Shown here: positions 7,104 to 34,766 of the stretch, in pieces
Numbering within the stretch: position 1 is the stretch's first letter
How the letters are laid out: the number at the start of each line of letters is the position of its first letter
Origin: an uncultured Endomicrobiia bacterium
Lineage (GTDB): Bacteria > Elusimicrobiota > Endomicrobiia > DTEH01
Reading direction: 5' to 3'
Length of the DNA: 64,000 nt
Assembly (NCBI GenBank): GCA_937928765.1
Contig: CALFVX010000001.1
Coordinates: forward strand, 16,246-80,245
Made by a program: the position numbers and the translations under genes
The notes under the pieces: generated by a model
What the model saw: only the letters and a program-made list of their open reading frames with translations
Databases searched by the model: none
What the model was told of the DNA's origin: nothing

Positions 7104-7994
7104 ATGAATTTTAAATATGCAGATTCTTATATATTACAACTTTTAAATAATTTTATTTTTGAACCAGGTGGTGTTGTAGATGGAAAACATCCAGGAAAAC
7201 ACAGAAGTTTTTCTATAGGAAGATCTTTAGAATTTGTTCAACACAGAGAATATACTCCAACAGATGATTTAAAGTATATTGATTGGAAAGTTTATGCAAG
7301 AAGAGATAGGTTTTTTATTAAACAATACTATCAAGAAACAAATCTTGAATCGTGGATTTTTATAGATTGTTCAAGATCAATGTGGTTTCCTGAAAATACT
7401 AAAGAGGTTACAAAATATGAATATGCTAATTATTTAGCTTCGTATTTAAGTTATATATTGTTAAAACAAGGAGATACTGTAGGAATAGCGAAGTTTGATA
7501 ATAAAATAAAATATTTGTTAGAAAAATCTTCTAAAGAAAAATTTTATTATAAAATACTTCAATTTTTAGAAGAAGAAACCGTAGGTCAACAGACAAAGTT
7601 TGTAAATATTATAGATGAAATATTTAAATTTGTTAAAAAAAGGATGTTTTTAATATTTATTTCAGACTTAATTGTAAATAACGAATTAGAAATTGTAAGA
7701 TTATTTAAAAAAATCTCTTCTTATGGAATAAATATTTTAATTTTACACATAATTCATCCTAAAGAATATGATCTTAACTGGATACAAGAAAATAAAATTA
7801 TTTTTGAAGATATTGAATACTTAAATCAGATAACAACTGAAATTTATGAAATAAAAAATTTATATCAAAAAGAATTCAAAAAAATTTTGGAATATTATAA
7901 AAAAGAATTAAATGATAAAAATGTTCATTATTTTGTAATAAATACTAAATTACCTGTTTTAGAAAATCTTAGATTAATAATTTCACAAAAGTGA
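7104..7994 (+). CDS. DUF58 family protein (vWA-like; usual partner of MoxR AAA ATPases)
   Basis: Motif GKHRSFSIGRSLEFVQHREYTPTDDLKYIDWKVYARRDRFFIKQY matches the DUF58 signature. It is the first gene of a long ATGA-coupled operon. Confidence 0.7.
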   Translation: MNFKYADSYILQLLNNFIFEPGGVVDGKHPGKHRSFSIGRSLEFVQHREYTPTDDLKYIDWKVYARRDRFFIKQYYQETNLESWIFIDCSRSMWFPENTKEVTKYEYANYLASYLSYILLKQGDTVGIAKFDNKIKYLLEKSSKEKFYYKILQFLEEETVGQQTKFVNIIDEIFKFVKKRMFLIFISDLIVNNELEIVRLFKKISSYGINILILHIIHPKEYDLNWIQENKIIFEDIEYLNQITTEIYEIKNLYQKEFKKILEYYKKELNDKNVHYFVINTKLPVLENLRLIISQK

Positions 7995-16998: not shown

Positions 16999-17016
16999 AT
17001 ATAGAGGAGTAATATT

Positions 17017-18135: not shown

Positions 18136-21100
18136 GAATAAAAGATTATTTTGAAAAAATTGTAATATTAAGAATTCTGTTTTTAGTTTCTAGATTTGTT
18201 ATAACAGCAGTTAATGTGATAATTGGATTCTTTGTATTAAGTATGTTAATAGATAAAATTTTACCGTTGCCTATTATAATTTTTCACATTTATTGGTTTA
18301 TTATTTTAGGAGTGATTTTTATATTTTTTATTAATCTTATCGTAAGAGTTGTAGAACTTAAAGTAAAACCTTATTATTATATTATGGAATCTATAAACAA
18401 ATATTTAAGGTTAGAAAATAAAGATGCTGTAATTAATGCTTTTTTATTAGAACAAAATTTAGTCTATGATAAAAATTTGAATTTTTCTTCTGAGTTAGCT
18501 AGCGAATTTATTAAAAATGTAAAAGAAAAATTGTTAGAAATAAAACCAAAAAAGATAGTTGAATTTGAAAAAATTTTTAAAGTCTTACCACTTAATTTTA
18601 TACTAATTTCTTTAGCTTTTATACTTTACATATACCCTCCATATGTAATCAAAGAAGGTGTATATAAAATTCTATTTACAAGAAATCCGGAAATACTAGG
18701 TATTTTTATTATGCCTAAAAATATAAAAATTCCCTATAAAGAAAGTTGTGAAATAAAAGTTATTATAGATAAAAATTATGAACTTTATATTCCGGCTTTA
18801 TTTGTAAAAACAAAAAATTTTGATAAGTTTGTGAGAGTAAATTTTGATTCTCAAGAAAATTTTTTAAATAGGAAAATATATAAATATAAAATAAATTCTA
18901 TAGAAGAAAAAATATTTTATAAAATAAAATTTCGTGGAGTAAAAACTAAAACTTTTGTTATAGATCCGATTCTATATCCTGAGATTTCTAAAATAAAAAT
19001 TTTTGTATCTCCTCCAGAATATACAGGAATAGAACCTTATGAAATAAATAGTTTTAATGCAACAAAATATTTTTATAACACTAACATAAAATTTACAGGT
19101 ACAACAAATAAAAAGGTAGAAAATGTAAATCTTTTGTTTAGCGATGGTGAGAAAATAATACTTTCATTAGATAAAAATAAAACAAATTTTTATGGAGAAT
19201 TTAAAATAACTAAAGACACAGAATTATGGTTTGAAATTACTGATACAGAAAATATGAACAACTTTGAAAAATTAAGATATAAAATAAATATTTTAGAAGA
19301 TAAATATCCTGAAATTAAACTTATTTCTCCTCAAGATGAAATTGTAGTTGAGCCTAATGTTAAAATACCACTAGTTTTTTCTTGTAGAGATGATATTTCT
19401 TTAAAAAAGGTTGAGTTGGTATATTATATTAACAACGATGTGAAAAATAAAATAAAAATTAAAGAATATCTTCAAAAAACAAAAGAAGATTTAGAAGAAT
19501 ATATTTTTGATCTAAGTAAATTAAAAGTTAATTTTGGAGATGTTATAAGTTATTATTTTATCGTATATGATAACAATCCTTATAAAAGTCAATATAATCT
19601 CTCTTCTGTACAAAAGATAGAAATTTTTAGCTATGAAAAACAACATAACAATATACAAAAACAAATAGAGGAATTTAATAAAAAATCTCTGGATTTACTT
19701 TCTAAAGAGATTGAATTAAAAGAATTTTTTTTAACCAAAACTACTACAACAGCAAATTTTAATGATGATTTACAAAAATTTATTATTTCTCATTTAAAAA
19801 CAAAAGAAGATTTTGATAATTTGGAAAAAATAATTTCTTCTATTGTAGAAAATATGTCAAAAGATCCATATACTTCGTTTGATACATATATAGAATTTAA
19901 AAATATAGAATCTTTAATTAAAGAGTTAAAAGAAGAAATTTTTCCAAAACTTTTAGATGAGTTAAGAGATAAAAATTTGTCTAAAGCAGAAGAATCTCAG
20001 CAACAAATTGTAGATAGTTTAGAAAGAATTACAGGATTATCTAATGAAATTGTTAAAAAACAAAATATGCATAATATAGCAGAAATTGCTAGAGATATAA
20101 AAAGTTTTAGTGAAGATATTTTCGAAATTTTGAAAAATTCAGATAAAAATATTTCTGAAGAAGAAAAAAATAAGATAAAAAATTTGCTTAAAGAAATTGA
20201 AGATAAATTAAAAAAAATAAATGATTTGATCAAAAATATGCCACAGGATTTGCCAATTGAGTTTGTTAACCAAAGAGATATACAAAATTTAGATTTATTT
20301 TCACCAACAGATTTAATACAAAAAATTGTCTCTGCTATAGAACAAAACAATCTTTCTTTGGCAACAATGTTAGCAAAAAATTTGTTGTCCCAGTTAGATT
20401 ATATAACTAAAAAGATTTCTCAGCCAAGCTATGAAATAGCTTTATCTGGGACATCATATTTAGATAAGGAGCTAAAGGAGTTGATTAGTAATTTGGATGA
20501 AATTATTTTTGAAGAAGATGAGATATATAAAAATACAAAAAAGATTGAAAACTATAGAATAACAGAAGTTTTAAAGCATCAAGAAGACAAAAAGGACATA
20601 ATAAAAAATCATATTGAGGAAATAAAAAATGAGATTAATAAAGTATTAAATACAGATGAATTTAATCAATTTGTAAATAAAAACATTTATAAACAAAATT
20701 CTTTAAAAGCTATAAATAATTTAAATGCGGTAATTTTAGAAACAGAAAAAAATATATTTTTAAAGACAGCACAATTAATAGAAGATAGCAAAAAAATATG
20801 GATGAATAACTTTGATTTAATTAATGATTTAGATATAGAAATATATAGAGTTTTAATAGAAAAAACAAAAATTGTAAAAGAAAAAATTGATGAATTACAT
20901 AAAATTGTAAATTTAGAACCGGAGATAAAATATAAAAGTGAAATATTAAAAAAAAATGAAGAGTTGATATATAAGCAAGAATTTGTAATTAATAAAACAA
21001 AAAATTTTAGAGAAAAATTAAAATCTTTAGGTAAAAAGAGCTTTATTATTTCTTACAAAGATATACTAATCACTAACCAGTCTATAAATTCAATGAATAA

Positions 21101-21440
21101 TTCAAAAGAATTTTTAGAAATAAAAAACTTTTCTTTGGCACTACAAGAACAAAATTCTGCAATAAATCTATTGTTAAAATTAAGGAATAAGTTTAATGAT
21201 AAAAAATCTATGATGCAACAAATATTAAATTCTATTGGTAAACCTATAGCGGAAAAATTGCAATATAAATCTTCTGCTGGTAAAATTGGTGTTATTGAAG
21301 GAAGAGTGTTGTTACCTTCTGTAAAAGATTATGAACCACCAAAAGAGTTAAGAGAAGAGATAATAAAGTCGTTAAGCGAAAAATATCCTAAAGAGTTAGA
21401 AAATATATTACAAAAATATTATCAAGAAATTTTAAGATGA
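18132..21440 (+). CDS. Large (1102 aa) membrane-anchored coiled-coil protein of unknown function
   Basis: N-terminal 3-4 TM helices followed by a long K/E/I/N-rich helical region. It is ATGA-coupled both upstream and downstream. Confidence 0.45.
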   Translation: MRIKDYFEKIVILRILFLVSRFVITAVNVIIGFFVLSMLIDKILPLPIIIFHIYWFIILGVIFIFFINLIVRVVELKVKPYYYIMESINKYLRLENKDAVINAFLLEQNLVYDKNLNFSSELASEFIKNVKEKLLEIKPKKIVEFEKIFKVLPLNFILISLAFILYIYPPYVIKEGVYKILFTRNPEILGIFIMPKNIKIPYKESCEIKVIIDKNYELYIPALFVKTKNFDKFVRVNFDSQENFLNRKIYKYKINSIEEKIFYKIKFRGVKTKTFVIDPILYPEISKIKIFVSPPEYTGIEPYEINSFNATKYFYNTNIKFTGTTNKKVENVNLLFSDGEKIILSLDKNKTNFYGEFKITKDTELWFEITDTENMNNFEKLRYKINILEDKYPEIKLISPQDEIVVEPNVKIPLVFSCRDDISLKKVELVYYINNDVKNKIKIKEYLQKTKEDLEEYIFDLSKLKVNFGDVISYYFIVYDNNPYKSQYNLSSVQKIEIFSYEKQHNNIQKQIEEFNKKSLDLLSKEIELKEFFLTKTTTTANFNDDLQKFIISHLKTKEDFDNLEKIISSIVENMSKDPYTSFDTYIEFKNIESLIKELKEEIFPKLLDELRDKNLSKAEESQQQIVDSLERITGLSNEIVKKQNMHNIAEIARDIKSFSEDIFEILKNSDKNISEEEKNKIKNLLKEIEDKLKKINDLIKNMPQDLPIEFVNQRDIQNLDLFSPTDLIQKIVSAIEQNNLSLATMLAKNLLSQLDYITKKISQPSYEIALSGTSYLDKELKELISNLDEIIFEEDEIYKNTKKIENYRITEVLKHQEDKKDIIKNHIEEIKNEINKVLNTDEFNQFVNKNIYKQNSLKAINNLNAVILETEKNIFLKTAQLIEDSKKIWMNNFDLINDLDIEIYRVLIEKTKIVKEKIDELHKIVNLEPEIKYKSEILKKNEELIYKQEFVINKTKNFREKLKSLGKKSFIISYKDILITNQSINSMNNSKEFLEIKNFSLALQEQNSAINLLLKLRNKFNDKKSMMQQILNSIGKPIAEKLQYKSSAGKIGVIEGRVLLPSVKDYEPPKELREEIIKSLSEKYPKELENILQKYYQEILR

Positions 21441-23023
21441 AAAAAAACATATATTTTGTGGCTTTAATTTTGTTAAACTCTATTTCTTTATTTTTAGCAG
21501 ATGTTAATCATCAAAATAGCAAGATAAATTTTATTTTAAATTATTTAGAAGCAGGCAATTTCAAACAAGCAGAAGAAATTATAAATACTGAGAGAGATTA
21601 TGATTTAAAAGGATATCTGTATAGTATATATCATTTATATAGCGGAGATAATGTTTTAGCCGAAGAATATGTTAAAAGAGTACAGAATAATTACAAAGAT
21701 GACTTCTTTTCTAATTATATTGTAAACATTAATAAAATTATAAACGATTATGAAGTTTATGAATCTCAACATTTTAAAGTTTTTCTTAAAGGTAAAGATA
21801 CTATACTAAAAGATTTTATTTTAGAAAAGTTAGAAAAAATTTATGAGATATATGGAAGGATATTTAATTATTATCCAGAAGATAAAGTTAGAGTAGAAGT
21901 TTATAATACAAAACAGGAATTCTATTTTGCTACAACTTTAAAAGAAGACTTAGTTAAAAATACAGGGGTAGTTGGTATTTGTAAGTTTAACAAAATTATG
22001 ATTATCTCACCAGAAAATTTGCCGTTAGGATACAGGTGGATTGACACATTAGCACATGAATACATACATTTTATTCTTAATAGAAAAACATCATATAAGT
22101 ATCCTTTATATCTACACGAAGCAACTGCAAGATATTTTGATACTATATATAGATCTTCTTTTGTGGTATGTTTTACAGCTGGTAATTTGAAATTATTAGT
22201 TGAAGCTAAAAAAAATAATAAACTTATAAATTTTGATGAGATGAAAGGATCTTTAATATATTTTGAGGATATAGATAAAATAGAATTAGCATTTGTAGAA
22301 CTTGCTAGTTTTGTAGAATTTTTAGTTAAAAATTTTGGTATTGAAAAATTTGTTAAATTTATAGAACAATATGATTCTCAGAATGAAAAAAAATTATATA
22401 AAGAAATTTTTGATAAAGATTATAAAGAGATCATATCTTTATGGATGCAAACAATAGATGAAAAAGAAGAATATATAAAACTATATCCTGGTGCTGTTTC
22501 AGATTTAAAAATTAAAACCGCAACAGATGAAAATAGTTTGATAGGCCTTGATTTAGAAAGTTATATTAGATTAGGAGATAAATTTTTAAGTTTGAATAAT
22601 TATAAATCTGCATTGTTTCAATATAATAAGGCAAAAGAGATTGAAGCCTATAATCCATTGGTTTTAAGTAGAATTGGGAAAATATATTTATTAACAAAAA
22701 AATATGATTTATGTGAGGAAGTATTAAAAGAATGTATATTGTCCAACCCAAATTTTGTTACTTCCTATGAGATTTTGTTAAAATGTTATTATGAAAAAGG
22801 TGATTATGAAAAAGTTTTAGAGATTTTTAATTCTGTTGTTGAGATTAATCCGTTTAATTATGAAATAAGAAAAATAGTTGCGGAAGTATATGCAAGTTTA
22901 GGTAAAATTAAAGAAGCATTGCAACAATATAAAATAGTAAAGATTTTACAACCAAATGATATAGAAATAGAAAATATTATTAATTCTTTAGAAGAATATT
23001 TAAAGATAAAATATAGAAGATGA
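21437..23023 (+). CDS. Putative secreted zinc metallopeptidase (HExxH) with C-terminal TPR repeats
   Basis: Signal peptide, HEYIH motif in the sequence DTLAHEYIHFIL, and a C-terminal TPR block. Confidence 0.45.
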   Translation: MKKNIYFVALILLNSISLFLADVNHQNSKINFILNYLEAGNFKQAEEIINTERDYDLKGYLYSIYHLYSGDNVLAEEYVKRVQNNYKDDFFSNYIVNINKIINDYEVYESQHFKVFLKGKDTILKDFILEKLEKIYEIYGRIFNYYPEDKVRVEVYNTKQEFYFATTLKEDLVKNTGVVGICKFNKIMIISPENLPLGYRWIDTLAHEYIHFILNRKTSYKYPLYLHEATARYFDTIYRSSFVVCFTAGNLKLLVEAKKNNKLINFDEMKGSLIYFEDIDKIELAFVELASFVEFLVKNFGIEKFVKFIEQYDSQNEKKLYKEIFDKDYKEIISLWMQTIDEKEEYIKLYPGAVSDLKIKTATDENSLIGLDLESYIRLGDKFLSLNNYKSALFQYNKAKEIEAYNPLVLSRIGKIYLLTKKYDLCEEVLKECILSNPNFVTSYEILLKCYYEKGDYEKVLEIFNSVVEINPFNYEIRKIVAEVYASLGKIKEALQQYKIVKILQPNDIEIENIINSLEEYLKIKYRR

Positions 23024-24516
23024 ACAGAGATATTTATTTAAAAATAAGGAAAGAACAGTTTAAAAAAATTAATAATTTAGTTAAAGAAAATTTTTTTGAA
23101 AAAAATCTTAGTAAGAAAATAATAGGTGAAATTTGGTATAGACAAGAGTTTGAAAAAAGAAATCTGACTACTATAGATGGTAAAAAAATTTTTGTTATTT
23201 CTCCTGGAGAAAGAAGTAGTTTTATTCATTTCGACTTTACTAAAGCAAAGATTTTGGTTGATGGCAAAGAATATGTTTTAGATATAGAAGTCCATAAGAA
23301 TCGTTCTGATTGGTTTAAACATAAACACGATTTTAGTTTAAAAGATGATGAAGGAATTTTACATGTTTTTTATAATTTTGACACTAAGAGATTAATTGAA
23401 GGCAGAAAGATTTTTGAGATATGTTTAAAAGGCTTTATTAATTTTGAAAATTTATATTTATTTGAAGATTTGAAAGAAATAAGATTTAAAGAAGCAGGTT
23501 TGTGTGGTTACAATATGTCAAACAAGGATTATGAATATTTGGAGGGTTTAATAATTTCTGCAGCAGAAGCAAGAGTATTTTTAAAATCTGAAAAATTTTT
23601 TAAATGGTTTATAAGTAAACAACAAGAAGAACAACTACTTTATGAACAGATTTGTGAAGTTTATGGTTTTGCTAATAATAGAGATAATTTTTTATTATTG
23701 TCAAATTTAGTACCAATAAAAAAAATTAGAAAATTAATCAGAAAGTATCCTAAAAGTCAGCATATTGAAATAATAGAAAGTATTTTTTTTGGCGTGAGTG
23801 GTTTATATTATGATTTAAAAGATAAATGTATAGTTGACGACTATGTATTAAAAATATACAATTTTTGGGAAAACAAGTTTAATAAATTTTTTAGCAAAAA
23901 ACTATTAAGAGATAAATGGAGATTTTATAAAACCCGGCCAGTAAATTATCCTTATAGAAGAATCTCTGCTTTAAGTAGGACATTAGCAAATTTTTTAGAA
24001 TTTAAAATTAACAATTTTTTAACTAATCTATTAGAAAATTTTTCTGTAGAAGAAATTTTTTATCATTTAAATAATATTTTTTACCAACCTGCTGAAGGGT
24101 ATTTTTCAAAAAAATGTAGTTTTACAAGTAAAGAATTTAAAAAACCAGTAGTTTTGTTTGGTGAAGAAAAAGTTTCTGTTTTAATAATTAATGTTATTAT
24201 ACCATATTTTATTTACTATTCGAGAAAGAAAAAAGATGAAAAACTTTATTCAAAAATTTTAAAGATATTTGAAAATATAAAATTAGCGGAAAAGAATAAT
24301 ATAGTTATTAATTTTTCAAAAAATTTGATAAAAAGTAGAGAACATAGAAAATATTTTTTATCAAAACCAATTTTTGTTCAAGGGTTGTTACAAATTTATA
24401 AAGATTTTTGTGAATCATTTTATAATAGATGCAGTGATTGTTATCTACCAAAAATTGTAAAACAGGATTATATTATTAATGAAGACAAGAATAAATTTGA
24501 TTTTATAGAATTATGA
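23020..24516 (+). CDS. DUF2851-like protein
   Basis: 498 aa, coupled within the operon, with no catalytic motif recognised. The family call is from overall resemblance and is low confidence. Confidence 0.35.
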   Translation: MNRDIYLKIRKEQFKKINNLVKENFFEKNLSKKIIGEIWYRQEFEKRNLTTIDGKKIFVISPGERSSFIHFDFTKAKILVDGKEYVLDIEVHKNRSDWFKHKHDFSLKDDEGILHVFYNFDTKRLIEGRKIFEICLKGFINFENLYLFEDLKEIRFKEAGLCGYNMSNKDYEYLEGLIISAAEARVFLKSEKFFKWFISKQQEEQLLYEQICEVYGFANNRDNFLLLSNLVPIKKIRKLIRKYPKSQHIEIIESIFFGVSGLYYDLKDKCIVDDYVLKIYNFWENKFNKFFSKKLLRDKWRFYKTRPVNYPYRRISALSRTLANFLEFKINNFLTNLLENFSVEEIFYHLNNIFYQPAEGYFSKKCSFTSKEFKKPVVLFGEEKVSVLIINVIIPYFIYYSRKKKDEKLYSKILKIFENIKLAEKNNIVINFSKNLIKSREHRKYFLSKPIFVQGLLQIYKDFCESFYNRCSDCYLPKIVKQDYIINEDKNKFDFIEL

Positions 24517-25619
24517 AGAACATATTATCAAAACAAGTTTTAAAATTGTTAAAAAATAACTATTTATATAAGTATGTTTATGTTTTCTTACAATTTCTGG
24601 TTAACAATAACTACAACTTTTATTTTGTAGGAGGTAGTTTAAGAGATGTTATTCTTTCAATTTTGTATAACAAAAAATTTTTGCCACAAGATATAGATAT
24701 TGTAGTTGAGACAAAAGATTATTTTGGTTTAGTGGAAAAAATTAAAGATTTATACTTCAAAAACAACAACATAGAATTTATAGCACATCCAAAATTTCTT
24801 ACTTTCAGTATCATTATATATGAAAAGAATAAAAAATTAAAAATAGATTTATCATTGCCAAGAAAAGAACAATACAAATTTTCAGGTGCGTTGCCAGAAG
24901 TAGATTTTGGAAGCATACAAGAAGATTTGTTTAGGAGAGATTTCACAGTAAATTCTATAGCATTAAGATATGATAATGAAAAAAAAGAATATTATTTTTT
25001 TGACCCGTATTATGGAATTAGAGATTTATTTGATAAAAAAATAAGGATTTTACATAATAAAAGTTTTATAGATGATCCTACACGAATAATTAGAGCTATA
25101 AGGTTTGCTGCAGATTTGAATTTTAAAATTGAAAAAAATACAGAAAAATTGTTAAAGGAAGCAGTAAATAGTGGTGTATTAAAAAATATTTCAAAAGTAA
25201 GATTGCATAATGAATTCCTATATATTTTAAAAAAAGGTAGAAACTTATCTCAAATTAGTAAGAACTTTTTAAAATATAATGTTGTAAGTTACTACAAAGA
25301 TATAGAAGATATAATAGGTGTTTTTGTTAAACAAAGTAAAAAAATTGAATTGCAAGAAATAAGGAATTATGATATAAAATTTTACATTAGACTATTTTAT
25401 CTTATAAAATCCACTTTAATAGAGATTGATATATTTGATAAGGAATACTTAAAGAAAGTTAAAGATATAATGGTTAGATTATATATTAATAAAAAAGATA
25501 GAGAAGATATTTATTATGCAGTAAAAACTTTTATTGGGAAAAACAAGGTTTTAAACCATGAAAAATTACCTTTATGGATAGAATACTACTCTAAAATTTT
25601 TGATAATCCTCTTTATTAG
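24513..25619 (+). CDS. Poly(A) polymerase / CCA-adding-enzyme family nucleotidyltransferase (head domain)
   Basis: Pol-beta NTase motif FYFVGGSLRDVIL...DIDIVV plus the RIIRAIRFAADLNF helical region typical of PF01743. Confidence 0.55.
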   Translation: MKNILSKQVLKLLKNNYLYKYVYVFLQFLVNNNYNFYFVGGSLRDVILSILYNKKFLPQDIDIVVETKDYFGLVEKIKDLYFKNNNIEFIAHPKFLTFSIIIYEKNKKLKIDLSLPRKEQYKFSGALPEVDFGSIQEDLFRRDFTVNSIALRYDNEKKEYYFFDPYYGIRDLFDKKIRILHNKSFIDDPTRIIRAIRFAADLNFKIEKNTEKLLKEAVNSGVLKNISKVRLHNEFLYILKKGRNLSQISKNFLKYNVVSYYKDIEDIIGVFVKQSKKIELQEIRNYDIKFYIRLFYLIKSTLIEIDIFDKEYLKKVKDIMVRLYINKKDREDIYYAVKTFIGKNKVLNHEKLPLWIEYYSKIFDNPLY

Positions 25620-25764: not shown

Positions 25765-25793
25765 TTGACAAATTGCACTTTTTTGTATATTTA
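25765..25793 (+). promoter_or_regulatory. Sigma70-like promoter (TTGACA at about 25765-25770; -10 TATTTA/TATAT about 17 nt downstream) driving the riboswitch-led operon
   Basis: TAGTTGACAAATTGCACTTTTTTGTATATTTATATTAATTGG is nearly identical to the block at 55312-55350. Confidence 0.45.
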
Positions 25794-25841
25794 TATTAAT
25801 TGGCAGGGGCAACAAAAAGTTCTTAAAATATTAAGATTAAT

Positions 25842-25934
25842 TTCCTTCACGCGATAAAGGCAAACCCTGAGTAATCAGGGGGCGCAAAGCTATAGGGTCC
25901 TTCAGATGAGGGGCAGCCAGCTGCCGAAGGAAGG
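25842..25934 (+). promoter_or_regulatory. Cyclic-di-GMP-I (GEMM) riboswitch in the 5' leader
   Basis: CACGCGAUAAAGGCAAACCCUGAGUAAUCAGGGGGCGCAAAGCUAUAGGGUCC...GGGGCAGCCAGCUGCC carries the GEMM-I hallmarks GGCAAACC and GGCGCAAAGCUAUAGGG with a GNRA-like tetraloop hairpin. Flanking P1 strands UCCUUC/GAAGGA overlap the SD, and the ATG is at 25938. Confidence 0.7.
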
Positions 25935-25937
25935 AAA

Positions 25938-26399
25938 ATGAAAGTAGAAGAAAATTTTTTTGCTTTCAAAAAAACATTTTACAAAAATTTTACATACTCT
26001 TTCCTTACTTTACTTTTTAGTATAATACTTATAAAAAATCTTTTGTTATCAAATCATAACATACAAAACTTACCTAATAATGATTTAAAATTTAGCAAAA
26101 GCTCTTATAGCACTATAAATTTTTATTCTGAAGAAGGTATTATAGTTAATTTTCCTAATCCGTTTAGTAATTTCACTTATATTTATGTTAGATTGCCTAA
26201 AAAAGATGATTGTATAATAAAAATATACGATTTGTTTGGTAATTTGATTAAAGAATTTAATCTATCTGGCGAAGATAAATATATGTTGGTTTGGGATGGA
26301 AGAAATTTTAATTCTGAAAAGGTATCAAAAGGCGGATATATTTGTGTCTTACAATATAGTGGTAAAAAAATTATAAGAAAAATAGGTTATTTAAGATGA
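25938..26399 (+). CDS. Small membrane-anchored protein consisting essentially of a T9SS C-terminal sorting (CTD) / FlgD-Ig-like beta-sandwich domain
   Basis: FPNPFSNFTYIYVRL...CIIKIYDLFGNLIKEFNL...WDGRNFNSEKVSKGGYICVLQYSGKKIIRKIGYL matches the Por_Secre_tail / FlgD_ig consensus. There is no cargo domain. Confidence 0.55.
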   Translation: MKVEENFFAFKKTFYKNFTYSFLTLLFSIILIKNLLLSNHNIQNLPNNDLKFSKSSYSTINFYSEEGIIVNFPNPFSNFTYIYVRLPKKDDCIIKIYDLFGNLIKEFNLSGEDKYMLVWDGRNFNSEKVSKGGYICVLQYSGKKIIRKIGYLR

Positions 26400-28003
26400 A
26401 GCTAAATAACAACAATAATATCTTTTTTGTTTTTGAATTTAAAATAAAAGTATGGGTTATTATTTTTTTGTTTTTATTTAATAATATTTTACAATCTTCT
26501 TACACAGGAGGCCAACCTGCAGAATTTTTACAATTTGGTGCTTCAGCAAAAGGTATGGCTATGAAAGCATTTTTTTCTATTTCAGATGATGCATCTGCAG
26601 TATATTATAATCCAGCAGGACTTGTACAGTGTGATAGAAAAGAAATTTTAGCCTTGCATACTGAACTTTTTCCTAATACTCAAACAATATATGATTTTAT
26701 AGGTTTTGTTTATCCTACGATAAAATATGGTATTTTTTCTTTAGGGATTACACAGTTGTTATCTACTGGATTTGAAAAAATCGAGATAGAATACGATTCT
26801 TCTTCAGAGGATATCATCAGAATAGAAAATAAAGGTACTTTTGATGATAGACAAATTGCTATTTTGTTAGGTTATGCTAAAGAAGTTGTTGAACATATAA
26901 ATTTAGGTGTCGGGTTTAAATATATTTCTAGAAAGTTAGATATTTATTCTGATACAATGATAGGTAGCGATATTAATGTATTAGTGAGTGGACTAAATTC
27001 AAAATTGCCAAAACTTAATGTTGCTTTTGGAATAAAAAATTTAATTTCTACTAAAAGTGGCACTGAAGATAGTTTGCCTATAATATTTAAATTAGGCAGT
27101 TCCTATAAGTTTATGAGAGACAGGTTAGTTTTAGGTTTTGATATTGAGAAAAATATAAATTCAGAGTTGAAATGGATGTTGGGAACAGAATATTGGTTAT
27201 TGGAGTTTTTTGCTTTGAGATTAGGATTTGAAGGTTTGAGTTATTTAAAAGAAACAACTGCAGGATTAGGGTTTAAATATAAAGATTATCGCGTAGATTA
27301 TTCCTTTGCATATCACGAATTGGGTTTTTCTCATAGAATTTCTGCAGATATAAAATGGGGTAAATCAGTAAAATTTGACCGAGAAGAAGAGATAAAAAGA
27401 TTAATTAACGAAACCATTGCTTTGTATACTGCAGGAAAGTTTATGGAAGCTGCAAAAAAAGCCGAAACAGCATATCAATTAGATCCTAACAAAAAAGATG
27501 TTAAAAAAATTCTTGATAATTTACTTTTGATAACAGCTTATATTCGTTCTGCAACAGAAGATACTGAAGAACATCAGGGTATAAGAAGGGCAACTTTATC
27601 TTTGATGGAAAACGATTTTGCTGGAACAGTTAATGCTTTAAGATATGCATATTATAAGAATCCAACTAATAAATCATTACATCAACTGTTAAATCGTATT
27701 GAACAAATAGCTGGAATGACTCTTACCGAAGCTTATAGGGAAGAAGTTGCTGGTTGGTCTATAATAGATAAAAAGATTTATGAAGCAAGAGAAGATGTTT
27801 TAAATGGTAGATACACTGACGCCATAAGAAAATGTCAGGAAATACTTAATTTAGAGCCAAAAAATACAACTGCACTTGAAATTATGGGTTCTGCCTTCTT
27901 TATGATGAATGAGATAGATAAAGCAAAAGCTGTCTGGAAAAAAGTCTTAGAATTAGATCCAACGAACAAGGTTATACAACAATTTTTACAAGAATTAGAA
28001 TAA
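26396..28003 (+). CDS. Outer-membrane beta-barrel protein (FadL/PorV-like N-terminal motif) with C-terminal TPR repeats
   Basis: Signal peptide, then FGASAKGMAMKAFFSISDDASAVYYNPAGL, which is the FadL/TodX/PorV-type hallmark. It has an alternating beta-strand pattern, and the last ~200 aa are TPR-like. Confidence 0.5.
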   Translation: MKLNNNNNIFFVFEFKIKVWVIIFLFLFNNILQSSYTGGQPAEFLQFGASAKGMAMKAFFSISDDASAVYYNPAGLVQCDRKEILALHTELFPNTQTIYDFIGFVYPTIKYGIFSLGITQLLSTGFEKIEIEYDSSSEDIIRIENKGTFDDRQIAILLGYAKEVVEHINLGVGFKYISRKLDIYSDTMIGSDINVLVSGLNSKLPKLNVAFGIKNLISTKSGTEDSLPIIFKLGSSYKFMRDRLVLGFDIEKNINSELKWMLGTEYWLLEFFALRLGFEGLSYLKETTAGLGFKYKDYRVDYSFAYHELGFSHRISADIKWGKSVKFDREEEIKRLINETIALYTAGKFMEAAKKAETAYQLDPNKKDVKKILDNLLLITAYIRSATEDTEEHQGIRRATLSLMENDFAGTVNALRYAYYKNPTNKSLHQLLNRIEQIAGMTLTEAYREEVAGWSIIDKKIYEAREDVLNGRYTDAIRKCQEILNLEPKNTTALEIMGSAFFMMNEIDKAKAVWKKVLELDPTNKVIQQFLQELE

Positions 28004-28014
28004 TTTTTAGGAGG

Positions 28015-29922
28015 ATGTTTATGAATATATTGAAAACAAATATAAATTTTTATATAAAAAATTATATGTTAAAACATATAAGCAAAGTTTTAATCCTAAT
28101 TATTCTTGCCACATTTCTACACCCACAACAAACAATTCAACAACTTTCTGCAGATCAACAGATAACTCCGGCAATGTTGCTTGAATATGAAACCAAGTTG
28201 GAACAGCAAAGGACAGAATATGTACAAAAAAATATTCTTGATAAAATTTTTGGCCCCAATAGATCTACAGTAATGATAGATATTACTTTAGGATTAAAGA
28301 CAACTACTACAAGACAACAGGCTTCTGCAAAAAAGCTTGATGCAAAAAGAAAATTAGGAGATACAGAATATTTACTACCCGGTATACCAAAACCTGGTTC
28401 TATTGCAGAGTCAGCTGTTCCAGCAGAAGCAAAAGGTGAGGCATCTGGTACTGAAATTATCGGAGTAAATACAGAGATAGTTATACAAAAGCAGAGTATT
28501 ACTGTAATATATGATGAAAAAATCAAAGATAATAAAGTAGAAATGGTTAGAGATGCTATTGCAGCAGCATTAGATATAAGAAAAAAAGAAACAATAGTAT
28601 TTAAGAAAGCAAAGTTTACTACGAATGTTTTGGAAAAATTTTTTGAAAATATTTTGTTACCAAAATATCTTATACCTTTGATAATAACTTTATTGTTATT
28701 AATGTTTTTGTTTGGTCCCATAGCAGATTTTTTAAGAAATTATATAAGAATGTTAAGAGAAAGATCACCCACAGAAATTTCTATAGACTCTAAACTTGCC
28801 AAAGAAGGAGAGTCGCCAACTGAAGGATTAACAGGAGCAGCTGGTGCAAGTGGAGTAGGAGGTGTATCTACAGGGTTGACAGAGGAAGAATTACAAGAAA
28901 AAGAAAAAATTAAAAAAGAAGAAAAATATATACCATTTAGTTATATAGATGACAGTAATATAAAGAGGTTAACATACTTAATAGCAAAAGAGAAACCAGA
29001 AGATATAGCTATTGTGCTTAGCTATTTAAAACCAGAGTATGTTAAACAAGTAATTGAAAGTTTTAAACCACATTTGCAAGCAGAGGTAGCAGTTGCTTTA
29101 GCTCAAGCAAGAGAAATACCGCAAGAAGATATTGTTCGTATGGATAACTATGTAAAAGAAAGAATTGATTTTTTGGTTGGAGGTATGCATCATCTTATAG
29201 AGTTATTACAGAAAGTAGATAAAACTACCCGAGATAATATATTAGAGTATCTTAAAAATGAAAAACCAGATATATATCAAAAAGTTCGTCCACAAATATT
29301 TTTGTTTGAAGATATTATTGATATTCCTGATATAACTTTACAAACTATTATTCGTGAATTAAAACCAGAAAATATTGCTCGTGCTTTAAGAAATGCTCCT
29401 AAAGAATTAGTTGATAAATTTTTTAAAAATATGTCAGAAGGAGCACAGGCACTTGTGAGAGAAGAAATTGACTATGGAAGGCCAATGACAAAAGAACAAA
29501 TTGAAGAAGAACAGAATAAAATTGTAGAATTAATTAAAAGAATGGAACAAGAAGGAAAAATTTATATTAAAGAAAGAGGAAAAACTTTTTTAATTGATGC
29601 AAGCGAAATTGTTTCAGAAACACAAAGAAATAAAAAAACAAATATAGAAGAATCTTTAGGATATGAGTATTATATTCAAGGTATAGATTTTTATCAACAA
29701 GGTGATTTTGAAAATGCAGTAACATATTTACAATATGCAACAGAATTAGATCCACAATTAAAAGAAGCATATCAATATCTTGGAAATATTTATTATGAAT
29801 CAGGGCAATATCAAGAAGCATTGAATTATTACAAAAAAGTTATAGAGATTAATCCAGAAGATAAAGAGTTTGCTTTATGGGTTGAAGAATTTGAAAAATC
29901 ATTATCAGTATCATCAATGTAA
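28015..29922 (+). CDS. Two-TM membrane protein with periplasmic segment, cytoplasmic FliG-like (middle plus C-terminal torque-helix) domain and C-terminal TPR repeats
   Basis: IAIVLSYLKPEYVKQVIESFKPHLQAEVAVALAQ compares with FliG IALILSYLDPDQAA..L..E.L..EV..RIA. FEDIIDIPDITLQTIIRELKPENIARALRNAPKELVDKFFKNMSEGAQALVREEIDYGRPM...EEEQNKIVELIKRMEQEGKIYI compares with FliG FEDIVNLDDRSIQRVLREVD...ALKGA..ELREKF..NMSKRAAEMLREDLE..GPV...VE.AQ..I...RRL...GEIVI. Confidence 0.6.
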   Translation: MFMNILKTNINFYIKNYMLKHISKVLILIILATFLHPQQTIQQLSADQQITPAMLLEYETKLEQQRTEYVQKNILDKIFGPNRSTVMIDITLGLKTTTTRQQASAKKLDAKRKLGDTEYLLPGIPKPGSIAESAVPAEAKGEASGTEIIGVNTEIVIQKQSITVIYDEKIKDNKVEMVRDAIAAALDIRKKETIVFKKAKFTTNVLEKFFENILLPKYLIPLIITLLLLMFLFGPIADFLRNYIRMLRERSPTEISIDSKLAKEGESPTEGLTGAAGASGVGGVSTGLTEEELQEKEKIKKEEKYIPFSYIDDSNIKRLTYLIAKEKPEDIAIVLSYLKPEYVKQVIESFKPHLQAEVAVALAQAREIPQEDIVRMDNYVKERIDFLVGGMHHLIELLQKVDKTTRDNILEYLKNEKPDIYQKVRPQIFLFEDIIDIPDITLQTIIRELKPENIARALRNAPKELVDKFFKNMSEGAQALVREEIDYGRPMTKEQIEEEQNKIVELIKRMEQEGKIYIKERGKTFLIDASEIVSETQRNKKTNIEESLGYEYYIQGIDFYQQGDFENAVTYLQYATELDPQLKEAYQYLGNIYYESGQYQEALNYYKKVIEINPEDKEFALWVEEFEKSLSVSSM

Positions 29923-29957: not shown

Positions 29958-32900
29958 ATGAGTATATTTGATAATATAAAAAATAAGTTAAATAAAAAAG
30001 AAAAAACAGAAACAGATGATAAAATAGAATTTTCAAATAAAAATGACGAGTATATACAAACAGATATGAATGATCCTATTATGTTAAAAGAAAACATACT
30101 TGCACAGATAAGGTATCTTGAACAAAAAATACAACAAGAAAGAGAAGAATTAATAAATCATCTTAAGTCTAAGGAAGAAGAAAAGGTTTCTTTAGAAATG
30201 AAGTTAAGTAATTTAGAATATAAAATTAATTCTAATAGGAATAATTTTGAAAAAGAAATAGAAAAATTAAGAGCAGATTTAGAAAGAGAGTTCCAACGTT
30301 TAAATTCAGAATATAATGAAGAAATTTCTTCTTGGGAAAAGATGTTAAATGTTAAGCAGAACGAAATAGAACAGTTGAGAAACAAAGCAGTATTTGAAGA
30401 AGCACAAAATAAAATGTTATTAGAACAAAAACAACAAGAAGTTAAACAAGAGATAGAAAGATTACAAAATAATCTAAAATTGTTAGAAAGACAGTTTGAG
30501 GAAGAAAAGAGCAAGTTTCATAGACGAATAGAAGAAAAAGATGAAGAAATTTTTAAATTAAAATCTTTAATAGAACTTAAAGAAAAACAACTAAAAGTTG
30601 AAGAAGAGAAATTTTTGTTATCAGCAAAAGATTTAAATGCCAAACGGCTACAGCAGATAAGTGAGATGCAGAAAAAATTTGAAGAAAAAATAGAAAATTA
30701 TAAGAAGTTATATAAGGCAAAAGATGAAGAATTTTTTACTGTAAAATATGTTTTGGAACAAAAACATTCAGAATGGGAACAACAACAAAAAGAAATGATT
30801 TCAAATTTAGAAAAATCAAAGAAAGATTATGAAAACAGGATAGGTCTTCTTAAAGAAGAAATAAAAAGTCATCAACAAGAGTTTGAAAAATTAATACAAG
30901 AGAAAGAAGAAGAAATAAAAAAATTAAAAGTAGAAATTATGTTAAAAGAAACACAATTTAATTCATTGATAGAACAAAAAAAGAAAATATTGTTAGAAGA
31001 AGAACAAAAGATAAAACAACAACTTTTTGATATTGAACAGAAATTTACAAAAGAATATGAAAACTATAATAAGTTGATACAAGACAAAGATCAAGAAATA
31101 ATGCATTTACAACTGATACATCAGCAGCAGTTGTCTAAGCTTAGAGAAGATTGGGATATAAAGATAAAAAAGTTATATGAAGAAAAAGAAGAATTAGAGA
31201 AAAAGATTCCTGAATTAGTTTCACAATTAGAAGAGATGAAATCAAAAGTAGCAAGTATTATGCAAGAGAAGAAGAGTTATATAGCAAAAATAAAGAAACA
31301 GAATAATGAGAAATTGCAAGAATTGAAAGAAAAATTAGAAAATACAATTAAAGAGATGTTAGAAAAAAATCAAAAATCAGAACAAGAATATAAGTTAAAA
31401 AAAGAAGAATTTGAAAACAAAAAAAATACATTAAAAATAGCACTGCAACAAAAAGAGTTAGAATTAAAAGAATTAAAAGAAAAATTAGAAAATGAAATTG
31501 AAAAAGAAAAAAACAGAGTGTTTTTGTTTGAACAAGAAATGAGACAAAAAAATTTACCTTTATATGAAAAAGTTAGTTTATTAAAAGAGGAAATTAAAGA
31601 TACGGAGAATAAAATACAGGATATTTTAAAAGCAAAAGATAAAGAAATACAGCATATTAACTTTAAGTATGAAATGTTAGAGAAGAATTTACAACAGAGA
31701 TATAGTAATGAATTAGAAAGTATTCAAAATAAAAAAATTTTATATGAAGAAAGGATTCTTCAGTTAAGAAATGAATTGAGTAAAATAGAACAAGAAAATA
31801 ATTTGAAGCTACAACAATATGAAAATGAAATAAAAGAAATACAAAACAATATAAATTTTTTAAATGAAAAAACAGAAGTAGAAAAAAGGAAAATAATAGA
31901 AGAAAACGAAAAAATAAAATATCAGTTGAATGAAGAAATTAAAAAATTAGAATGTAGATTAAATGAACTTATAAAAGAAAAAGAACAAATACTTAGTTCT
32001 AAACAACAAGAGGTTGATAGCTTAAATAATAAAATTTTAAATTTAGAAAAACAAAAGTATACTGAGATTGAAATGTTAAATAAAGATTGGCAACAGGAAG
32101 AAGAAAAGTTAAAGTTTAATATTCAACAATTAGAAGAAATTATAAAAGCAAAGATGGAAGAATATAAGACAAAAGTTATTCAAAAACAAAATGAATTGGA
32201 TTTGTTGAAAGAAAAATTTGCTAAAGAAGATTCAAATACGAGAAAAGATGTTGATAATTTAAAAATAAATTTAGAACAACAAAACTTACCTTTAGTTGAA
32301 AAACAGAAAGAAATTTTAAAAGCAATAGATGAATTACAAAAGGAAATGCAAGAAAAAGTTATTGAATATGATAAAAAAATTAATGATTTAAAAATTGAGT
32401 TAGATGATAAAATAAAACAATTTTCTGACATTGAACAGAAAAAGAAACAAGAAATAAAAATCTTAAGAGAAAAACTTAAAAGTTATTTGTTTACAAAAGA
32501 AGCACGAATTAAAGAATTGCAGACAGAATATGAGGAAAGGATTAAGCAGATAGAAAAAGAAAAGCAAGATTTTATTTTAGAACATAACAAAAAAATTCAA
32601 GAGTTAGAAATGACAAAAGATGGCATTGTTGAAAAATATAATATAGAAAGGCAGAAATTATTAGAAAATATTGATAATCTCACAATACAACTTAATAATT
32701 TTCAAGAAGAGATGCCAGAAGTTATTTCTGAAAAAGAAAAGGAAAAAGAAGAGTTGATTGTGCAGCTACAACAAATACAGAAAGAATATGCTGAAAAATT
32801 TGAAAATTTAAAGAACATGCAGATTACTTTACAAGAAAGACTAGAAAAAAGGATAAATAATTATCAAAAAATTATAAATTCTTTAAAGGAAGAACAAGAA

Positions 32901-34766
32901 AGAAAGATATATCAAAAACAGCAGGAGTTTGATAAAGTTAAAGAAGAATTAAAAGAAAAAGAAAACAGATTGTTAGAAGAAATAAGAAATTTGAATGAAA
33001 AAAATACTACAGAAATTGATAGATTAAAACAACAGAAAGAAAATCTTATCAAAAAAATAGAAGAGTTAGAGGCCACAAGTAAACAAATAATTAATAAGTT
33101 AGACTCAGAAATATTACAGATTAAGACAGAAATTATATCTAAAAAAGAATCTTTTGAACAAGAATGGACATTAAAACAAACAGATTTTGAAGATTTAAAA
33201 AATTCTTTAAACATTGAAATAGAATCTTTAAAAGTTAAGTTAAAAGCTGAAGAAGATAATTATAAAATTAAACTTATTGAAAGAACACAAGCACTTGAGA
33301 ATCTTAAAAAAGAATATGAGAATAGATATCAGCAATTGTTAAATGAATTTAACAATAAAAAAAATGACTTTAATGTTAAAATAGAAAAATTAAATATTAA
33401 AATTGCAAATTTGGAAGAAGAATTGAGGTCAAAGCAAGATTATTATTCTGCTTTGCAAAAAGCTAAAAAAGAAGAGATAGATAATATAAAATCTGAACTT
33501 TCTAATTTGGAAATAAATACTAAAATTGAAGAAGAGAAAAGGCAAAAAGAACTATCTTTACAACAGCAGAAATTAAAAGAAGAATTGGAAATATTAAAAC
33601 AACAATTAGAAATACAACGTGATAAATATATTGAAGAATTAAATAATAAAATAGCTGAAGAACAAAAAATTACAAACGATTTTAGACAAAAAGAAAAAGA
33701 GCTATTAGAAAAAATGACTCAAATAGAGGAAGAATATAATACTAAGAAACAACAATATCAGGTAGAATTGTCAAAATTGCAGAAACAATTAAAATTATTA
33801 TCTGAACAAAATGAAAAATTAATATCTGAGTTGGATAAAGAAATAGAACAAAATAATACAAAGATTGCTTTAAAACAAATTGAATTTAATACAATGAGAC
33901 AAAAATTTGAATTTGAATTTAAGAAACTTGTTTTACAGTATCAACAACAGAAAGAAAAAATTATTAGAGATTTTAATAAAGAAAATGAAGAGTTGATAGA
34001 ATCAATAAAAACAAAAGAAAATGAAATTGATACTATAAAGATGAGATATAATATAAGACAAAAAAGTATAGATGAAGAAATTAAAAGAAGAAAAAATTTT
34101 ATAGTAAAAGAATTATCTGAGTTAGAAAATGAGATTAAAAATATGGAAAATGTCTATGATGTAAAAAGTAAAGATTATGAAATACAAATTAACAGGAAAA
34201 AAGATCTTATTTCAAAGTTGAAATCTGAATTAGATAAATTAATTTTTTGCTGGGATGAAGAAAAAGAAAAAATTCTTAAAGAGAAACAAGAAAATAAAAA
34301 ACAATTAGATGAAGAGATAAATATTTTAAAGCAGAAATTAGATGAATACAAAACATATATTAACGAACTCATAATGAAAATAGAATCAAAATTTAAATTA
34401 GAACAAGAATTACTTGATTTTAAAGATTTTGAATTTATCAAAGAAAAACATATAACTTATAATACATTAGATAAAATTTATAGCTTGGTTACAAAAGATA
34501 AAACTAAATCAGAAATTAAGTTCAATAAAAATTTATTAGATGAAGCATTGATGTATTTTGATAACAAACAGTATGATTTATCTATAAAAAAATTTTTAAT
34601 TTTATTAGAACAAGATAAAAACAACGAGTTGTTAAATCAATATTTAGCATTATGTTATTATAACATTAAAGATTTTAAAAAAGCTAAAGAATATGGATTA
34701 AAAGTTTTAGAAATAAATCCTAACAATGAAATTATTAAATCCTGGCTTAAAGAAATAATTGAATAA
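29958..34766 (+). CDS. Giant (1602 aa) coiled-coil protein with C-terminal TPR module
   Basis: Continuous E/K/L/Q/N heptad-rich sequence with no globular ATPase head, and a TPR-like terminus (QYLALCYYNIKDFKKAKEYGLKVLEINPNN). Strong AGGAGG RBS. Confidence 0.6.
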   Translation: MSIFDNIKNKLNKKEKTETDDKIEFSNKNDEYIQTDMNDPIMLKENILAQIRYLEQKIQQEREELINHLKSKEEEKVSLEMKLSNLEYKINSNRNNFEKEIEKLRADLEREFQRLNSEYNEEISSWEKMLNVKQNEIEQLRNKAVFEEAQNKMLLEQKQQEVKQEIERLQNNLKLLERQFEEEKSKFHRRIEEKDEEIFKLKSLIELKEKQLKVEEEKFLLSAKDLNAKRLQQISEMQKKFEEKIENYKKLYKAKDEEFFTVKYVLEQKHSEWEQQQKEMISNLEKSKKDYENRIGLLKEEIKSHQQEFEKLIQEKEEEIKKLKVEIMLKETQFNSLIEQKKKILLEEEQKIKQQLFDIEQKFTKEYENYNKLIQDKDQEIMHLQLIHQQQLSKLREDWDIKIKKLYEEKEELEKKIPELVSQLEEMKSKVASIMQEKKSYIAKIKKQNNEKLQELKEKLENTIKEMLEKNQKSEQEYKLKKEEFENKKNTLKIALQQKELELKELKEKLENEIEKEKNRVFLFEQEMRQKNLPLYEKVSLLKEEIKDTENKIQDILKAKDKEIQHINFKYEMLEKNLQQRYSNELESIQNKKILYEERILQLRNELSKIEQENNLKLQQYENEIKEIQNNINFLNEKTEVEKRKIIEENEKIKYQLNEEIKKLECRLNELIKEKEQILSSKQQEVDSLNNKILNLEKQKYTEIEMLNKDWQQEEEKLKFNIQQLEEIIKAKMEEYKTKVIQKQNELDLLKEKFAKEDSNTRKDVDNLKINLEQQNLPLVEKQKEILKAIDELQKEMQEKVIEYDKKINDLKIELDDKIKQFSDIEQKKKQEIKILREKLKSYLFTKEARIKELQTEYEERIKQIEKEKQDFILEHNKKIQELEMTKDGIVEKYNIERQKLLENIDNLTIQLNNFQEEMPEVISEKEKEKEELIVQLQQIQKEYAEKFENLKNMQITLQERLEKRINNYQKIINSLKEEQERKIYQKQQEFDKVKEELKEKENRLLEEIRNLNEKNTTEIDRLKQQKENLIKKIEELEATSKQIINKLDSEILQIKTEIISKKESFEQEWTLKQTDFEDLKNSLNIEIESLKVKLKAEEDNYKIKLIERTQALENLKKEYENRYQQLLNEFNNKKNDFNVKIEKLNIKIANLEEELRSKQDYYSALQKAKKEEIDNIKSELSNLEINTKIEEEKRQKELSLQQQKLKEELEILKQQLEIQRDKYIEELNNKIAEEQKITNDFRQKEKELLEKMTQIEEEYNTKKQQYQVELSKLQKQLKLLSEQNEKLISELDKEIEQNNTKIALKQIEFNTMRQKFEFEFKKLVLQYQQQKEKIIRDFNKENEELIESIKTKENEIDTIKMRYNIRQKSIDEEIKRRKNFIVKELSELENEIKNMENVYDVKSKDYEIQINRKKDLISKLKSELDKLIFCWDEEKEKILKEKQENKKQLDEEINILKQKLDEYKTYINELIMKIESKFKLEQELLDFKDFEFIKEKHITYNTLDKIYSLVTKDKTKSEIKFNKNLLDEALMYFDNKQYDLSIKKFLILLEQDKNNELLNQYLALCYYNIKDFKKAKEYGLKVLEINPNNEIIKSWLKEIIE

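Follow-up and report, generated by a model that had tools for sequence, protein, structure and literature searches.

We analysed a 64,000-nucleotide stretch of DNA from an uncultured Endomicrobiia bacterium (contig CALFVX010000001.1, of 160 kb; the whole stretch is hereafter the window), and report on the gene at 25938–26399, whose product is, judged from its sequence and a predicted model, a small exported protein with a single folded part, an immunoglobulin (Ig)-like β-sandwich of the C-terminal domain (CTD) type belonging to the Por_Secre_tail/FlgD_ig superfamily. This gene, here called mini-CTD, is the first gene behind a cyclic di-GMP (c-di-GMP) riboswitch and adjoins the gene for a PorV/PorQ-family outer-membrane β-barrel. 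It is also the entry to a riboswitch-controlled operon, found throughout the phylum Elusimicrobiota, that carries homologues of flagellar rotor and stator proteins in organisms reported to be flagella-less and non-motile. By analogy with type IX secretion systems (T9SS), we read the mini-CTD protein as a bare CTD that pairs with its cognate PorV-like barrel and sits with it at the outer end of a non-flagellar machine of the FliG/MotAB kind, and give this reading about an even chance. In Bacteroidota, CTDs are seen as address labels that can be removed from large cargo, and a conserved protein that consists of the label only and is encoded beside its own barrel speaks for CTD-barrel docking as a structural module in its own right; the phylum that has this CTD-only protein is not known to have type IX secretion.

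The mini-CTD protein and its family

The open reading frame (ORF) is a real one, encoding 153 aa, and is closed at its 5′ side. Its stop-to-stop frame opens at 25896, within the riboswitch aptamer, and there is an in-frame stop 14 codons 5′ of the ATG; because the frame is closed inside the aptamer, neither an upstream start nor a fused cargo domain is possible, and a longer ORF with cargo is thereby ruled out. Within the protein, the leader and the CTD are separated only by ~30 disordered residues. In an AlphaFold2 model built on 27 homologues, the β-sandwich at aa 68–151 is predicted with high confidence (predicted local distance difference test > 90), and the domain ends 2–4 residues from the stop. 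A preliminary description, made from the letters of the window, had proposed a stand-alone, cargo-less CTD-type Ig protein that is the first riboswitch-controlled gene and neighbors a PorV/FadL-like outer-membrane protein, and each of these elements is borne out here. Its further statement that the whole protein after the anchor is a β-sandwich is slightly overstated because of the linker between anchor and sandwich; it holds for the C-terminal part. That description also did not recognise the gene as a conserved member of a cassette found throughout the phylum.

In hidden Markov model (HMM) searches, the mini-CTD protein passes the cut-offs of Por_Secre_tail (PF18962, Pfam: 27.3 bits vs. a gathering score of 27, E = 4.4e-6, residues 72–149) and of TIGR04183 (NCBIfam: 25.0 bits vs. 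23), and remains under those of CHU_C (23.5 bits) and FlgD_ig (PF13860: 18.8 bits vs. a gathering score of 27). TIGR04183 and PF13860 were the two models that the preliminary description had singled out, and a match to the first is thus found. The NCBIfam FlgD equivalogs give 13 bits against cut-offs of 230–258, and neither Pfam nor NCBIfam reports a FlgD N-terminal or Tudor-like region in the mini-CTD protein even at E ≤ 1; FlgD identity is not supported. Of the 27 sequences of the family, 26 match FlgD_ig (best E = 4.8e-13), 17 match Por_Secre_tail (at E ≤ 0.01) and 16 match CHU_C. The CTD domain call has already been made by automated annotation, two of the homologues being named “T9SS type A sorting domain-containing protein” by NCBI.

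When the family profile was compared with the PDB, the best solved relative was the PorU CTD of Porphyromonas gingivalis (6za2, E = 3.8e-5), followed by FlgD proteins (E ~ 0.009). Foldseek with the mini-CTD model likewise returned PorU at the top, and also FlgD, PorZ, RemA-CTD and NucA-CTD (T9SS translocon-bound), with target-normalised TM-scores of 0.62–0.70. As a means of telling a T9SS CTD from FlgD this search did not decide the matter, since PorU and FlgD share their score range (E ~ 4e-4 to 5e-3) with unrelated Ig domains, so that the fold alone does not separate the two readings. Fifteen positions are invariant over the 27 family sequences at identities down to 31%, including P73-N74-P75-F76, G132-G133-Y134 and R147-K148-x-G150, with IYDLFG and WDG nearly so; assigned by inspection, the invariant PNPF, GGY and RK-G residues sit at motifs B (PNP), D (G.Y) and E (basic, near the C-terminus) of type-A CTDs as defined previously (PMC10202324). 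Compared with 1.84 billion representatives, the family profile matched 217,380 proteins at E ≤ 1e-3. Some are very large and contain as many as 15 copies of the domain in tandem, others are large and have a single copy at the C-terminus, and a third set is small (123–190 aa).

We found 31 homologues of the mini-CTD protein (119–264 aa, down to 31% identity), and every one that carries a name is labelled Elusimicrobia or Endomicrobiia. Each member of the family has a hydrophobic N-terminal helix and keeps a putative export signal; in the deeper-branching mini-proteins (P0018–P0029) this takes the form of a short signal peptide of the classical kind, which has an A-x-G cleavage motif and is followed by hardly any linker. 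A YKNF motif before the hydrophobic stretch is common to the Endomicrobiia mini-proteins (K.FYKNFT[LY]; 25968–25994 in the window, aa 11–19) and to a giant ORF at the end of the window (KQYKNFWLE; 58167–58190). We considered a prepilin-type leader, as YKNFT resembles GFTLIE, and rejected it, since the N-termini of the mini-CTD protein and the giant ORF have no N_methyl or other Pfam match and the similarity is a resemblance only.

The same CTD also terminates giant proteins of related genomes, whose last 1500 residues contain no Pfam domain besides the CTD. Mini and giant CTDs share the signature N[FY]PNP..YDL.G..WDG..KGGY..IRKIG. Their identity is 33–43% within the same genome, compared with ~54% between minis of different genomes and 59–83% between giants; and in a neighbor-joining tree (~100 columns, without bootstrap support) all giant CTDs form one clade with the minis outside it. 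On account of this tree position and these identities, we take mini-CTD to be an old cargo-less paralogue and not a product of recent deletion. The family CTD HMM found no other CTD protein in the window, where the giant ORF runs off the end before its C-terminus.

That giant ORF (at least 1947 aa, from 58158 to beyond 64000, + strand) has a G+C content of 38–39% vs. ~24% in the rest of the window. Its only Pfam match is a weak one to Big_13, the Joint Genome Institute annotates homologues of its N-terminal 330 residues as PilV, and a homologue search with its N-terminus did not return the exact full-length protein.

Riboswitch, operon and their distribution

The features of the locus are collected in Table 1. 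The aptamer upstream of mini-CTD is of the c-di-GMP-I-GGC type, passes its Rfam gathering score and ends 9 nt before the ATG. In predicted folds, UUUCCUUC (25841–25848) pairs with the ribosome-binding-site segment GAAGGAAA (25930–25937), or CUUC pairs with GAAG (25926–25929), and no terminator was found between the aptamer and the mini-CTD ATG. Because the closing helix of the aptamer overlaps the ribosome-binding site, the arrangement suggests that the ligand-bound aptamer represses translation of the mini-CTD operon, a direction that we infer. Further upstream, a consensus scan placed a putative promoter site (TTGGCA-18-TAAAAT) at 25800–25829, and a TTGACAAAT box at 25765–25773 recurs in two orthologous loci that have no riboswitch (L006 and L008).

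Table 1. Coordinates of the leader, the mini-CTD gene and the downstream cassette genes in the window
Feature	Coordinates	Strand	Description and basis
Promoter-like region	25765–25829	+	Putative function; sequence reading and consensus scan
c-di-GMP-I-GGC riboswitch aptamer	25850–25929	+	Rfam RF03167, 66.3 bits vs. gathering score 59
Shine-Dalgarno region and start codon	25926–25940	+	GAAGGAAGGAAA + ATG; overlaps 3′ strand of the aptamer's closing helix
mini-CTD protein gene	25938–26399	+	153 aa, ATG start; leader helix, disordered linker, Ig-like CTD
mini-CTD N-terminal hydrophobic helix	25950–26048 (aa 5–37)	+	AlphaFold2 model
mini-CTD disordered linker	aa 39–62	+	AlphaFold2 model
mini-CTD C-terminal Ig-like CTD	26139–26390 (aa 68–151)	+	AlphaFold2 model, HMM matches
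PorV/PorQ-family outer-membrane β-barrel (aa 42–319) with C-terminal TPR tail	26396–28003	+	NF033709, 109.9 bits vs. cut-off 90; TPR_2, TPR_19
Inner-membrane rotor-like protein	28015–29922	+	Transmembrane helix, FliF RBM3/β-collar-like periplasmic domain, transmembrane helix, FliG_M, FliG_C, TPR; Pfam, PDB, AlphaFold2, Foldseek
Coiled-coil protein with C-terminal TPR	29958–34766	+	1602 aa, no signal peptide; specific to the type A (mini-CTD) cassette
Proline-rich/coiled-coil protein (fifth cassette gene)	34786–37983	+	1065 aa; homologues in both cassette types, conserved position

The start of the barrel gene overlaps the stop codon of mini-CTD (ATGA), and this overlap is retained in several lineages; the TPR tail of the barrel protein is presumably periplasmic. 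In the rotor-like protein encoded next, Pfam reports FliG_C (101 bits) and FliG_M (42 bits), a PDB comparison matches the middle and C-terminal domains of Thermotoga FliG (E = 2e-37), and some orthologues have precomputed matches to PF08345 (YscJ_FliF_C). The consensus of the FliG torque-helix region is NMSxGAxALLKEEMEYGRP. AlphaFold2 predicts a periplasmic α/β domain with a long β-hairpin between two transmembrane helices, and Foldseek likens this periplasmic part to FliF MS-ring chains (6sd3, 8t8p, 6scn and 8z5v; E ~ 1.5e-3) and the cytoplasmic part to FliG (E = 1e-10). From these sequence and model comparisons, the protein reads as a fusion of a FliF RBM3/collar-like domain to FliG. The fifth cassette protein has no Pfam domain, and it and its relatives show no informative PDB match, only an SMC-like coiled-coil similarity. 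All six genomic contexts that were fetched have the same order: mini-CTD, PorV-like barrel-TPR (~535 aa), FliG_M/FliG_C/TPR membrane protein (~630 aa), coiled-coil protein (1600–1860 aa), and a protein of ~900–1250 aa.

To survey the cassette, we used an alignment of the rotor-like protein to scan a single genome for each species. It has relatives in 178 genomes, and the best 80 loci were searched with HMMs built in this analysis, including a family-specific CTD HMM. Nearly all 80 are labelled Elusimicrobia, Elusimicrobiota or Endomicrobiia. Two types of cassette are seen. In type A (27 loci, similar to the window), mini-CTD lies directly upstream of the barrel gene in every locus, and the barrel and FliF/FliG genes are followed by the giant coiled-coil gene and then a homologue of the fifth gene, with no adjacent stator genes. 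In type B, the barrel gene is preceded by a giant ORF with the same CTD or by none that the family-specific HMM detects, and the barrel and FliF/FliG genes are followed by a fifth-gene homologue, FlbD, MotA, MotB (plug and OmpA) and a ~235-aa protein. At least eight type B loci have a giant CTD-ending ORF of ≥2500 aa directly upstream of the barrel gene (L031, L037, L050, L080, L082, L083, L087 and L090), these ORFs running off the fetched DNA, and more are cut at contig ends. Giant and mini CTD genes are not mutually exclusive: a giant one stands further upstream alongside mini-CTD in some type A loci (L011/L021, L022, L024 and L030), the one in L011 (1–5490) being called at 17,339 aa. FlbD-MotA-MotB lies downstream of the cassette in ~45 of the loci L029–L091, as it does in L009 (6629–9105) and L012 (14595–17097), and the type B MotA is of the flagellar type (NCBIfam MotP/MotA/PomA, E = 1e-66 to 1e-61). 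No other flagellar genes were found near these genes, and no flagellar export apparatus, rod or hook genes in the window or in any locus examined.

An aptamer on the coding strand, directly before the first cassette gene, was detected in 55 of 70 loci (~80%), made up of 19 of the 27 type A loci and 36 of the 43 others; the covariance model used, derived from four aptamers and capturing 13 base pairs, served as a detector only, and six loci were cross-checked by Rfam gathering scores. These scores are passed in the window and in L001, L003, L007, L011 (two aptamers), L012, L070, L077, L081 and L083; the aptamer of L004 has large insertions and is sub-threshold in Rfam, and none was found upstream of the cassette in L006, L008 and L013–L017. 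Nine loci have tandem aptamers before the mini-CTD gene (L011, L020–L026 and L056), which in L011 are a c-di-GMP-I aptamer followed by a GGC variant (7372–7459 and 7653–7749). The type B aptamer is located past the giant CTD gene and ahead of the barrel gene, so that only in type A is a CTD protein the first gene under riboswitch control.

The block upstream of the cassette (12788–25619 in the window) is also conserved in Endomicrobiia (L001, L006 and L008), with two TMEM260-like O-mannosyltransferase/TPR genes, a monogalactosyldiacylglycerol (MGDG)-synthase-like glycosyltransferase, DUF4175 (1102 aa), Peptidase_MA_2/TPR, DUF2851 and a PolyA_pol-family nucleotidyltransferase. Three labels deserve mention. 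A metagenome-assembled genome (MAG) labelled Elusimicrobium minutum carries the MotAB-containing form of the cassette (L077). A complete mini-CTD cassette occurs in a MAG labelled Ignavibacteria (L025, JBGFRZ010000082.1), which could reflect a mistake in binning or labelling, or else a transfer to a lineage beyond the phylum. NCBI labels the FliG-like protein of the contig itself (P0001, P0177) “Candidatus Omnitrophica bacterium”; since the close relatives of the cassette genes are all labelled Endomicrobiia or Elusimicrobia, the source MAG may be misassigned.

Proposed role and rival explanations

In the reading that we prefer, the mini-CTD protein and the barrel would be made together, from overlapping stop and start codons on one riboswitch-controlled transcript, and the Ig domain would dock on the adjacent cognate barrel. 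We propose this docking because of the analogy with T9SS, the strict adjacency of the two genes and their translational coupling; in T9SS, the outer face of the PorV barrel is the CTD-binding side. An envelope-spanning machine would have the barrel, joined through its TPR tail, as its outer-membrane end and a FliF-like ring fused to FliG as its inner-membrane core, accompanied in sister lineages by a flagellar-type MotA/MotB stator and FlbD. In these lineages a giant surface protein with the same CTD subtype would fill the slot upstream of the barrel, and mini-CTD, as an old paralogue that has kept only leader and CTD, would be a cargo-less occupant of the barrel: a structural subunit, a cap, or a competitor of the giant protein. 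Expression of the operon would be set by c-di-GMP, with the closing helix of the aptamer lying over the ribosome-binding site. Elusimicrobiota have been reported to lack flagellar machinery (PMC11257099), and for this reason the rotor and stator homologues would serve something other than a flagellum.

A more comprehensive proposal, which we offer tentatively and regard as somewhat improbable in full, is that the cassette is a non-flagellar rotary envelope machine of Elusimicrobiota. Its rotor would be the FliF-like/FliG fusion and its stator MotAB/FlbD, coiled-coil and TPR proteins would connect these to the PorV-like barrel, and CTD proteins would be loaded on the barrel, either giant adhesin-like ones (2500 to >17,000 residues) or mini-CTD. 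Such a machine would be a functional analogue of Bacteroidota gliding/T9SS assembled from flagellar parts and switched by c-di-GMP, with mini-CTD as the minimal load, or as a regulatory subunit that sits on the barrel in lineages, or under conditions, without a mounted giant protein. Such a machine, if real, would bear on the re-use of flagellar parts, on how outer-membrane processes are energised, and on the targets of c-di-GMP in an under-studied phylum.

Several observations weigh against seating mini-CTD on the barrel of a FliG/MotAB machine. The Por_Secre_tail cut-off is passed by only 0.3 bits, and most orthologues are nearer to FlgD_ig. MotAB was not found in the 64-kb window, so the motor link for this genome rests on its relatives; and in many type B loci the family-specific HMM found no CTD gene upstream of the barrel, so the CTD partner may not be obligatory. 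Lastly, the N-terminus in the window's clade has no clear signal-peptidase site (KNLLLS/N) and is predicted to form a 33-residue helix, and for these two reasons the protein may stay anchored in the inner membrane and never be at the outer face of the barrel.

This last point leads to the strongest of the alternatives, which we nevertheless consider unlikely: that the mini-CTD protein is an inner-membrane-anchored periplasmic connector, with an uncleaved helix, a linker that spans the periplasm, and an Ig domain whose binding partner would be the barrel's TPR tail, the FliF-like collar or else peptidoglycan, so that it would tether the outer and inner parts and not sit on the surface loops of the barrel. 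The single long helix (5–37) and following disordered linker of the AlphaFold2 model are what such a connector would have, a canonical A-x-A-type cleavage site is missing in the window's clade, and the TPR modules of both the barrel and the rotor-like protein could bind an Ig domain. The deeper-branching P0018–P0029, however, have signal peptides of the classical cleavable type and almost no linker, so the family as a whole does not conserve membrane anchoring.

We give a low probability to the mini-CTD protein being an ordinary T9SS substrate or decoy, exported and cleaved by a T9SS encoded elsewhere in the genome and acting as a cargo-less competitor or regulator of secretion. The passing scores for TIGR04183 and PF18962, the NCBI names of orthologues and the PorV/PorQ family membership of the neighbor would all be expected of such a protein. 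However, Pfam scans of nearly all window ORFs of ≥110 aa gave none of the T9SS core genes (SprA/Sov, PorK/L/M/N or GldKLMN, PorU, PorZ), and none was noted among the called genes of the ~20-kb loci; the conserved partners are of the FliF/FliG and MotAB types and not GldLM; and T9SS is distributed in Bacteroidota (PMC10202324), with no published report of it in Elusimicrobiota in the literature that we found. Mini-CTD as a T9SS component is thus not established.

Similarly improbable, in our estimate, is descent from the FlgD hook cap, with mini-CTD having survived alongside FliF, FliG and MotAB when a flagellum degenerated, so as to cap the FliF-like ring in the periplasm or serve as a scaffold there. 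The preliminary description had noted that a FlgD-Ig-like identity would reinforce a flagellar theme in the locus, and the theme itself stands: the operon does hold flagellar-derived parts, namely the FliF-like/FliG fusion and, in relatives, FlbD-MotA-MotB. FlgD_ig also matches all but one of the 27 family members, and both the sequence and the fold searches rank FlgD structures near the top. It is the identity of the mini-CTD protein that does not follow FlgD, because the match is confined to the Ig-like domain, with none of the FlgD-specific regions; the leader is hydrophobic and apparently of the Sec type, not a type III export signal; export apparatus, rod and hook genes are missing from every locus examined; and the domain subtype carries the PNP/GGY/RK-G motifs of type-A CTDs and also terminates giant proteins. 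Moreover, in the 217,380 matched representatives the FlgD_ig-like domain for the most part forms repeats within very large proteins or tags their C-termini.

That mini-CTD is a decaying, functionless remnant of a giant CTD gene, as the giant proteins in the same slot in other lineages might suggest, is very improbable given its 15 invariant positions, the putative export signals of every member, the retained stop/start overlap, its coexistence with intact giant CTD genes (L011, L022, L024 and L030), and the position of mini-type CTDs outside the giant-protein clade.

Comparison with known systems

The closest parallel to a CTD-only partner of a PorV-like barrel is the attachment complex of the P. 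gingivalis T9SS, in which the uncleaved CTD of PorU remains on PorV and that of PorZ remains on PorQ (PMC10202324). These pairs set a precedent for a CTD that is a permanent ligand of its cognate barrel and not a cleaved signal, and they share with mini-CTD the Ig-like CTD fold and a PorV/PorQ-family partner, the PorU CTD being its best solved match. Unlike mini-CTD, PorU and PorZ carry large functional domains. The setting also differs from the P. gingivalis T9SS: the host group is not known for a T9SS translocon, a sortase or a GldLM motor, the barrel has an added TPR tail, and the partners are of the FliF/FliG type.

A second parallel is SprB/SprF of Flavobacterium johnsoniae gliding, where, as here, a CTD protein and its cognate small barrel are encoded side by side. 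Genes for type-B CTD proteins neighbor those for the PorP/SprF barrels that anchor these proteins, and in SprB/SprF giant surface proteins are anchored through their CTD and coupled to an ion-driven rotary motor (PMC10202324), a logic shared by the type B cassettes. In contrast to the type-B CTD/SprF systems, the CTD here is nearer to type A/FlgD_ig (the CHU_C score being under its cut-off) and has no cargo in the window's version, and the motor parts are FliF/FliG with MotAB/FlbD instead of the GldLM/GldKN of gliding.

With FlgD (PF13860), the mini-CTD protein shares an Ig-like domain and a WDG...G.Y motif, the HMM and fold matches being of weak to moderate strength; it differs in having no N-terminal or Tudor region, in a putative Sec leader that replaces the type III export signal, and in loci without hook, rod or export apparatus. 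We found no published description of the cassette in literature on T9SS or FliG in Elusimicrobiota or on non-flagellar FliG/MotAB systems. Apparently undescribed are the family without cargo, its constant partnership with a PorV-like barrel, and the phylum-wide c-di-GMP-controlled FliF/FliG cassette (with or without MotAB); taken as a whole, the cassette may represent a system of a new kind.

The control region, finally, resembles the c-di-GMP class I (GEMM-I) riboswitches of surface and motility genes, having an Rfam-passing aptamer in the 5′ leader of an envelope- or motility-type operon. It departs from the known GEMM-I cases in that the regulated operon is of an apparently new type, several relatives have tandem aptamers, and the window's aptamer is a GGC variant.

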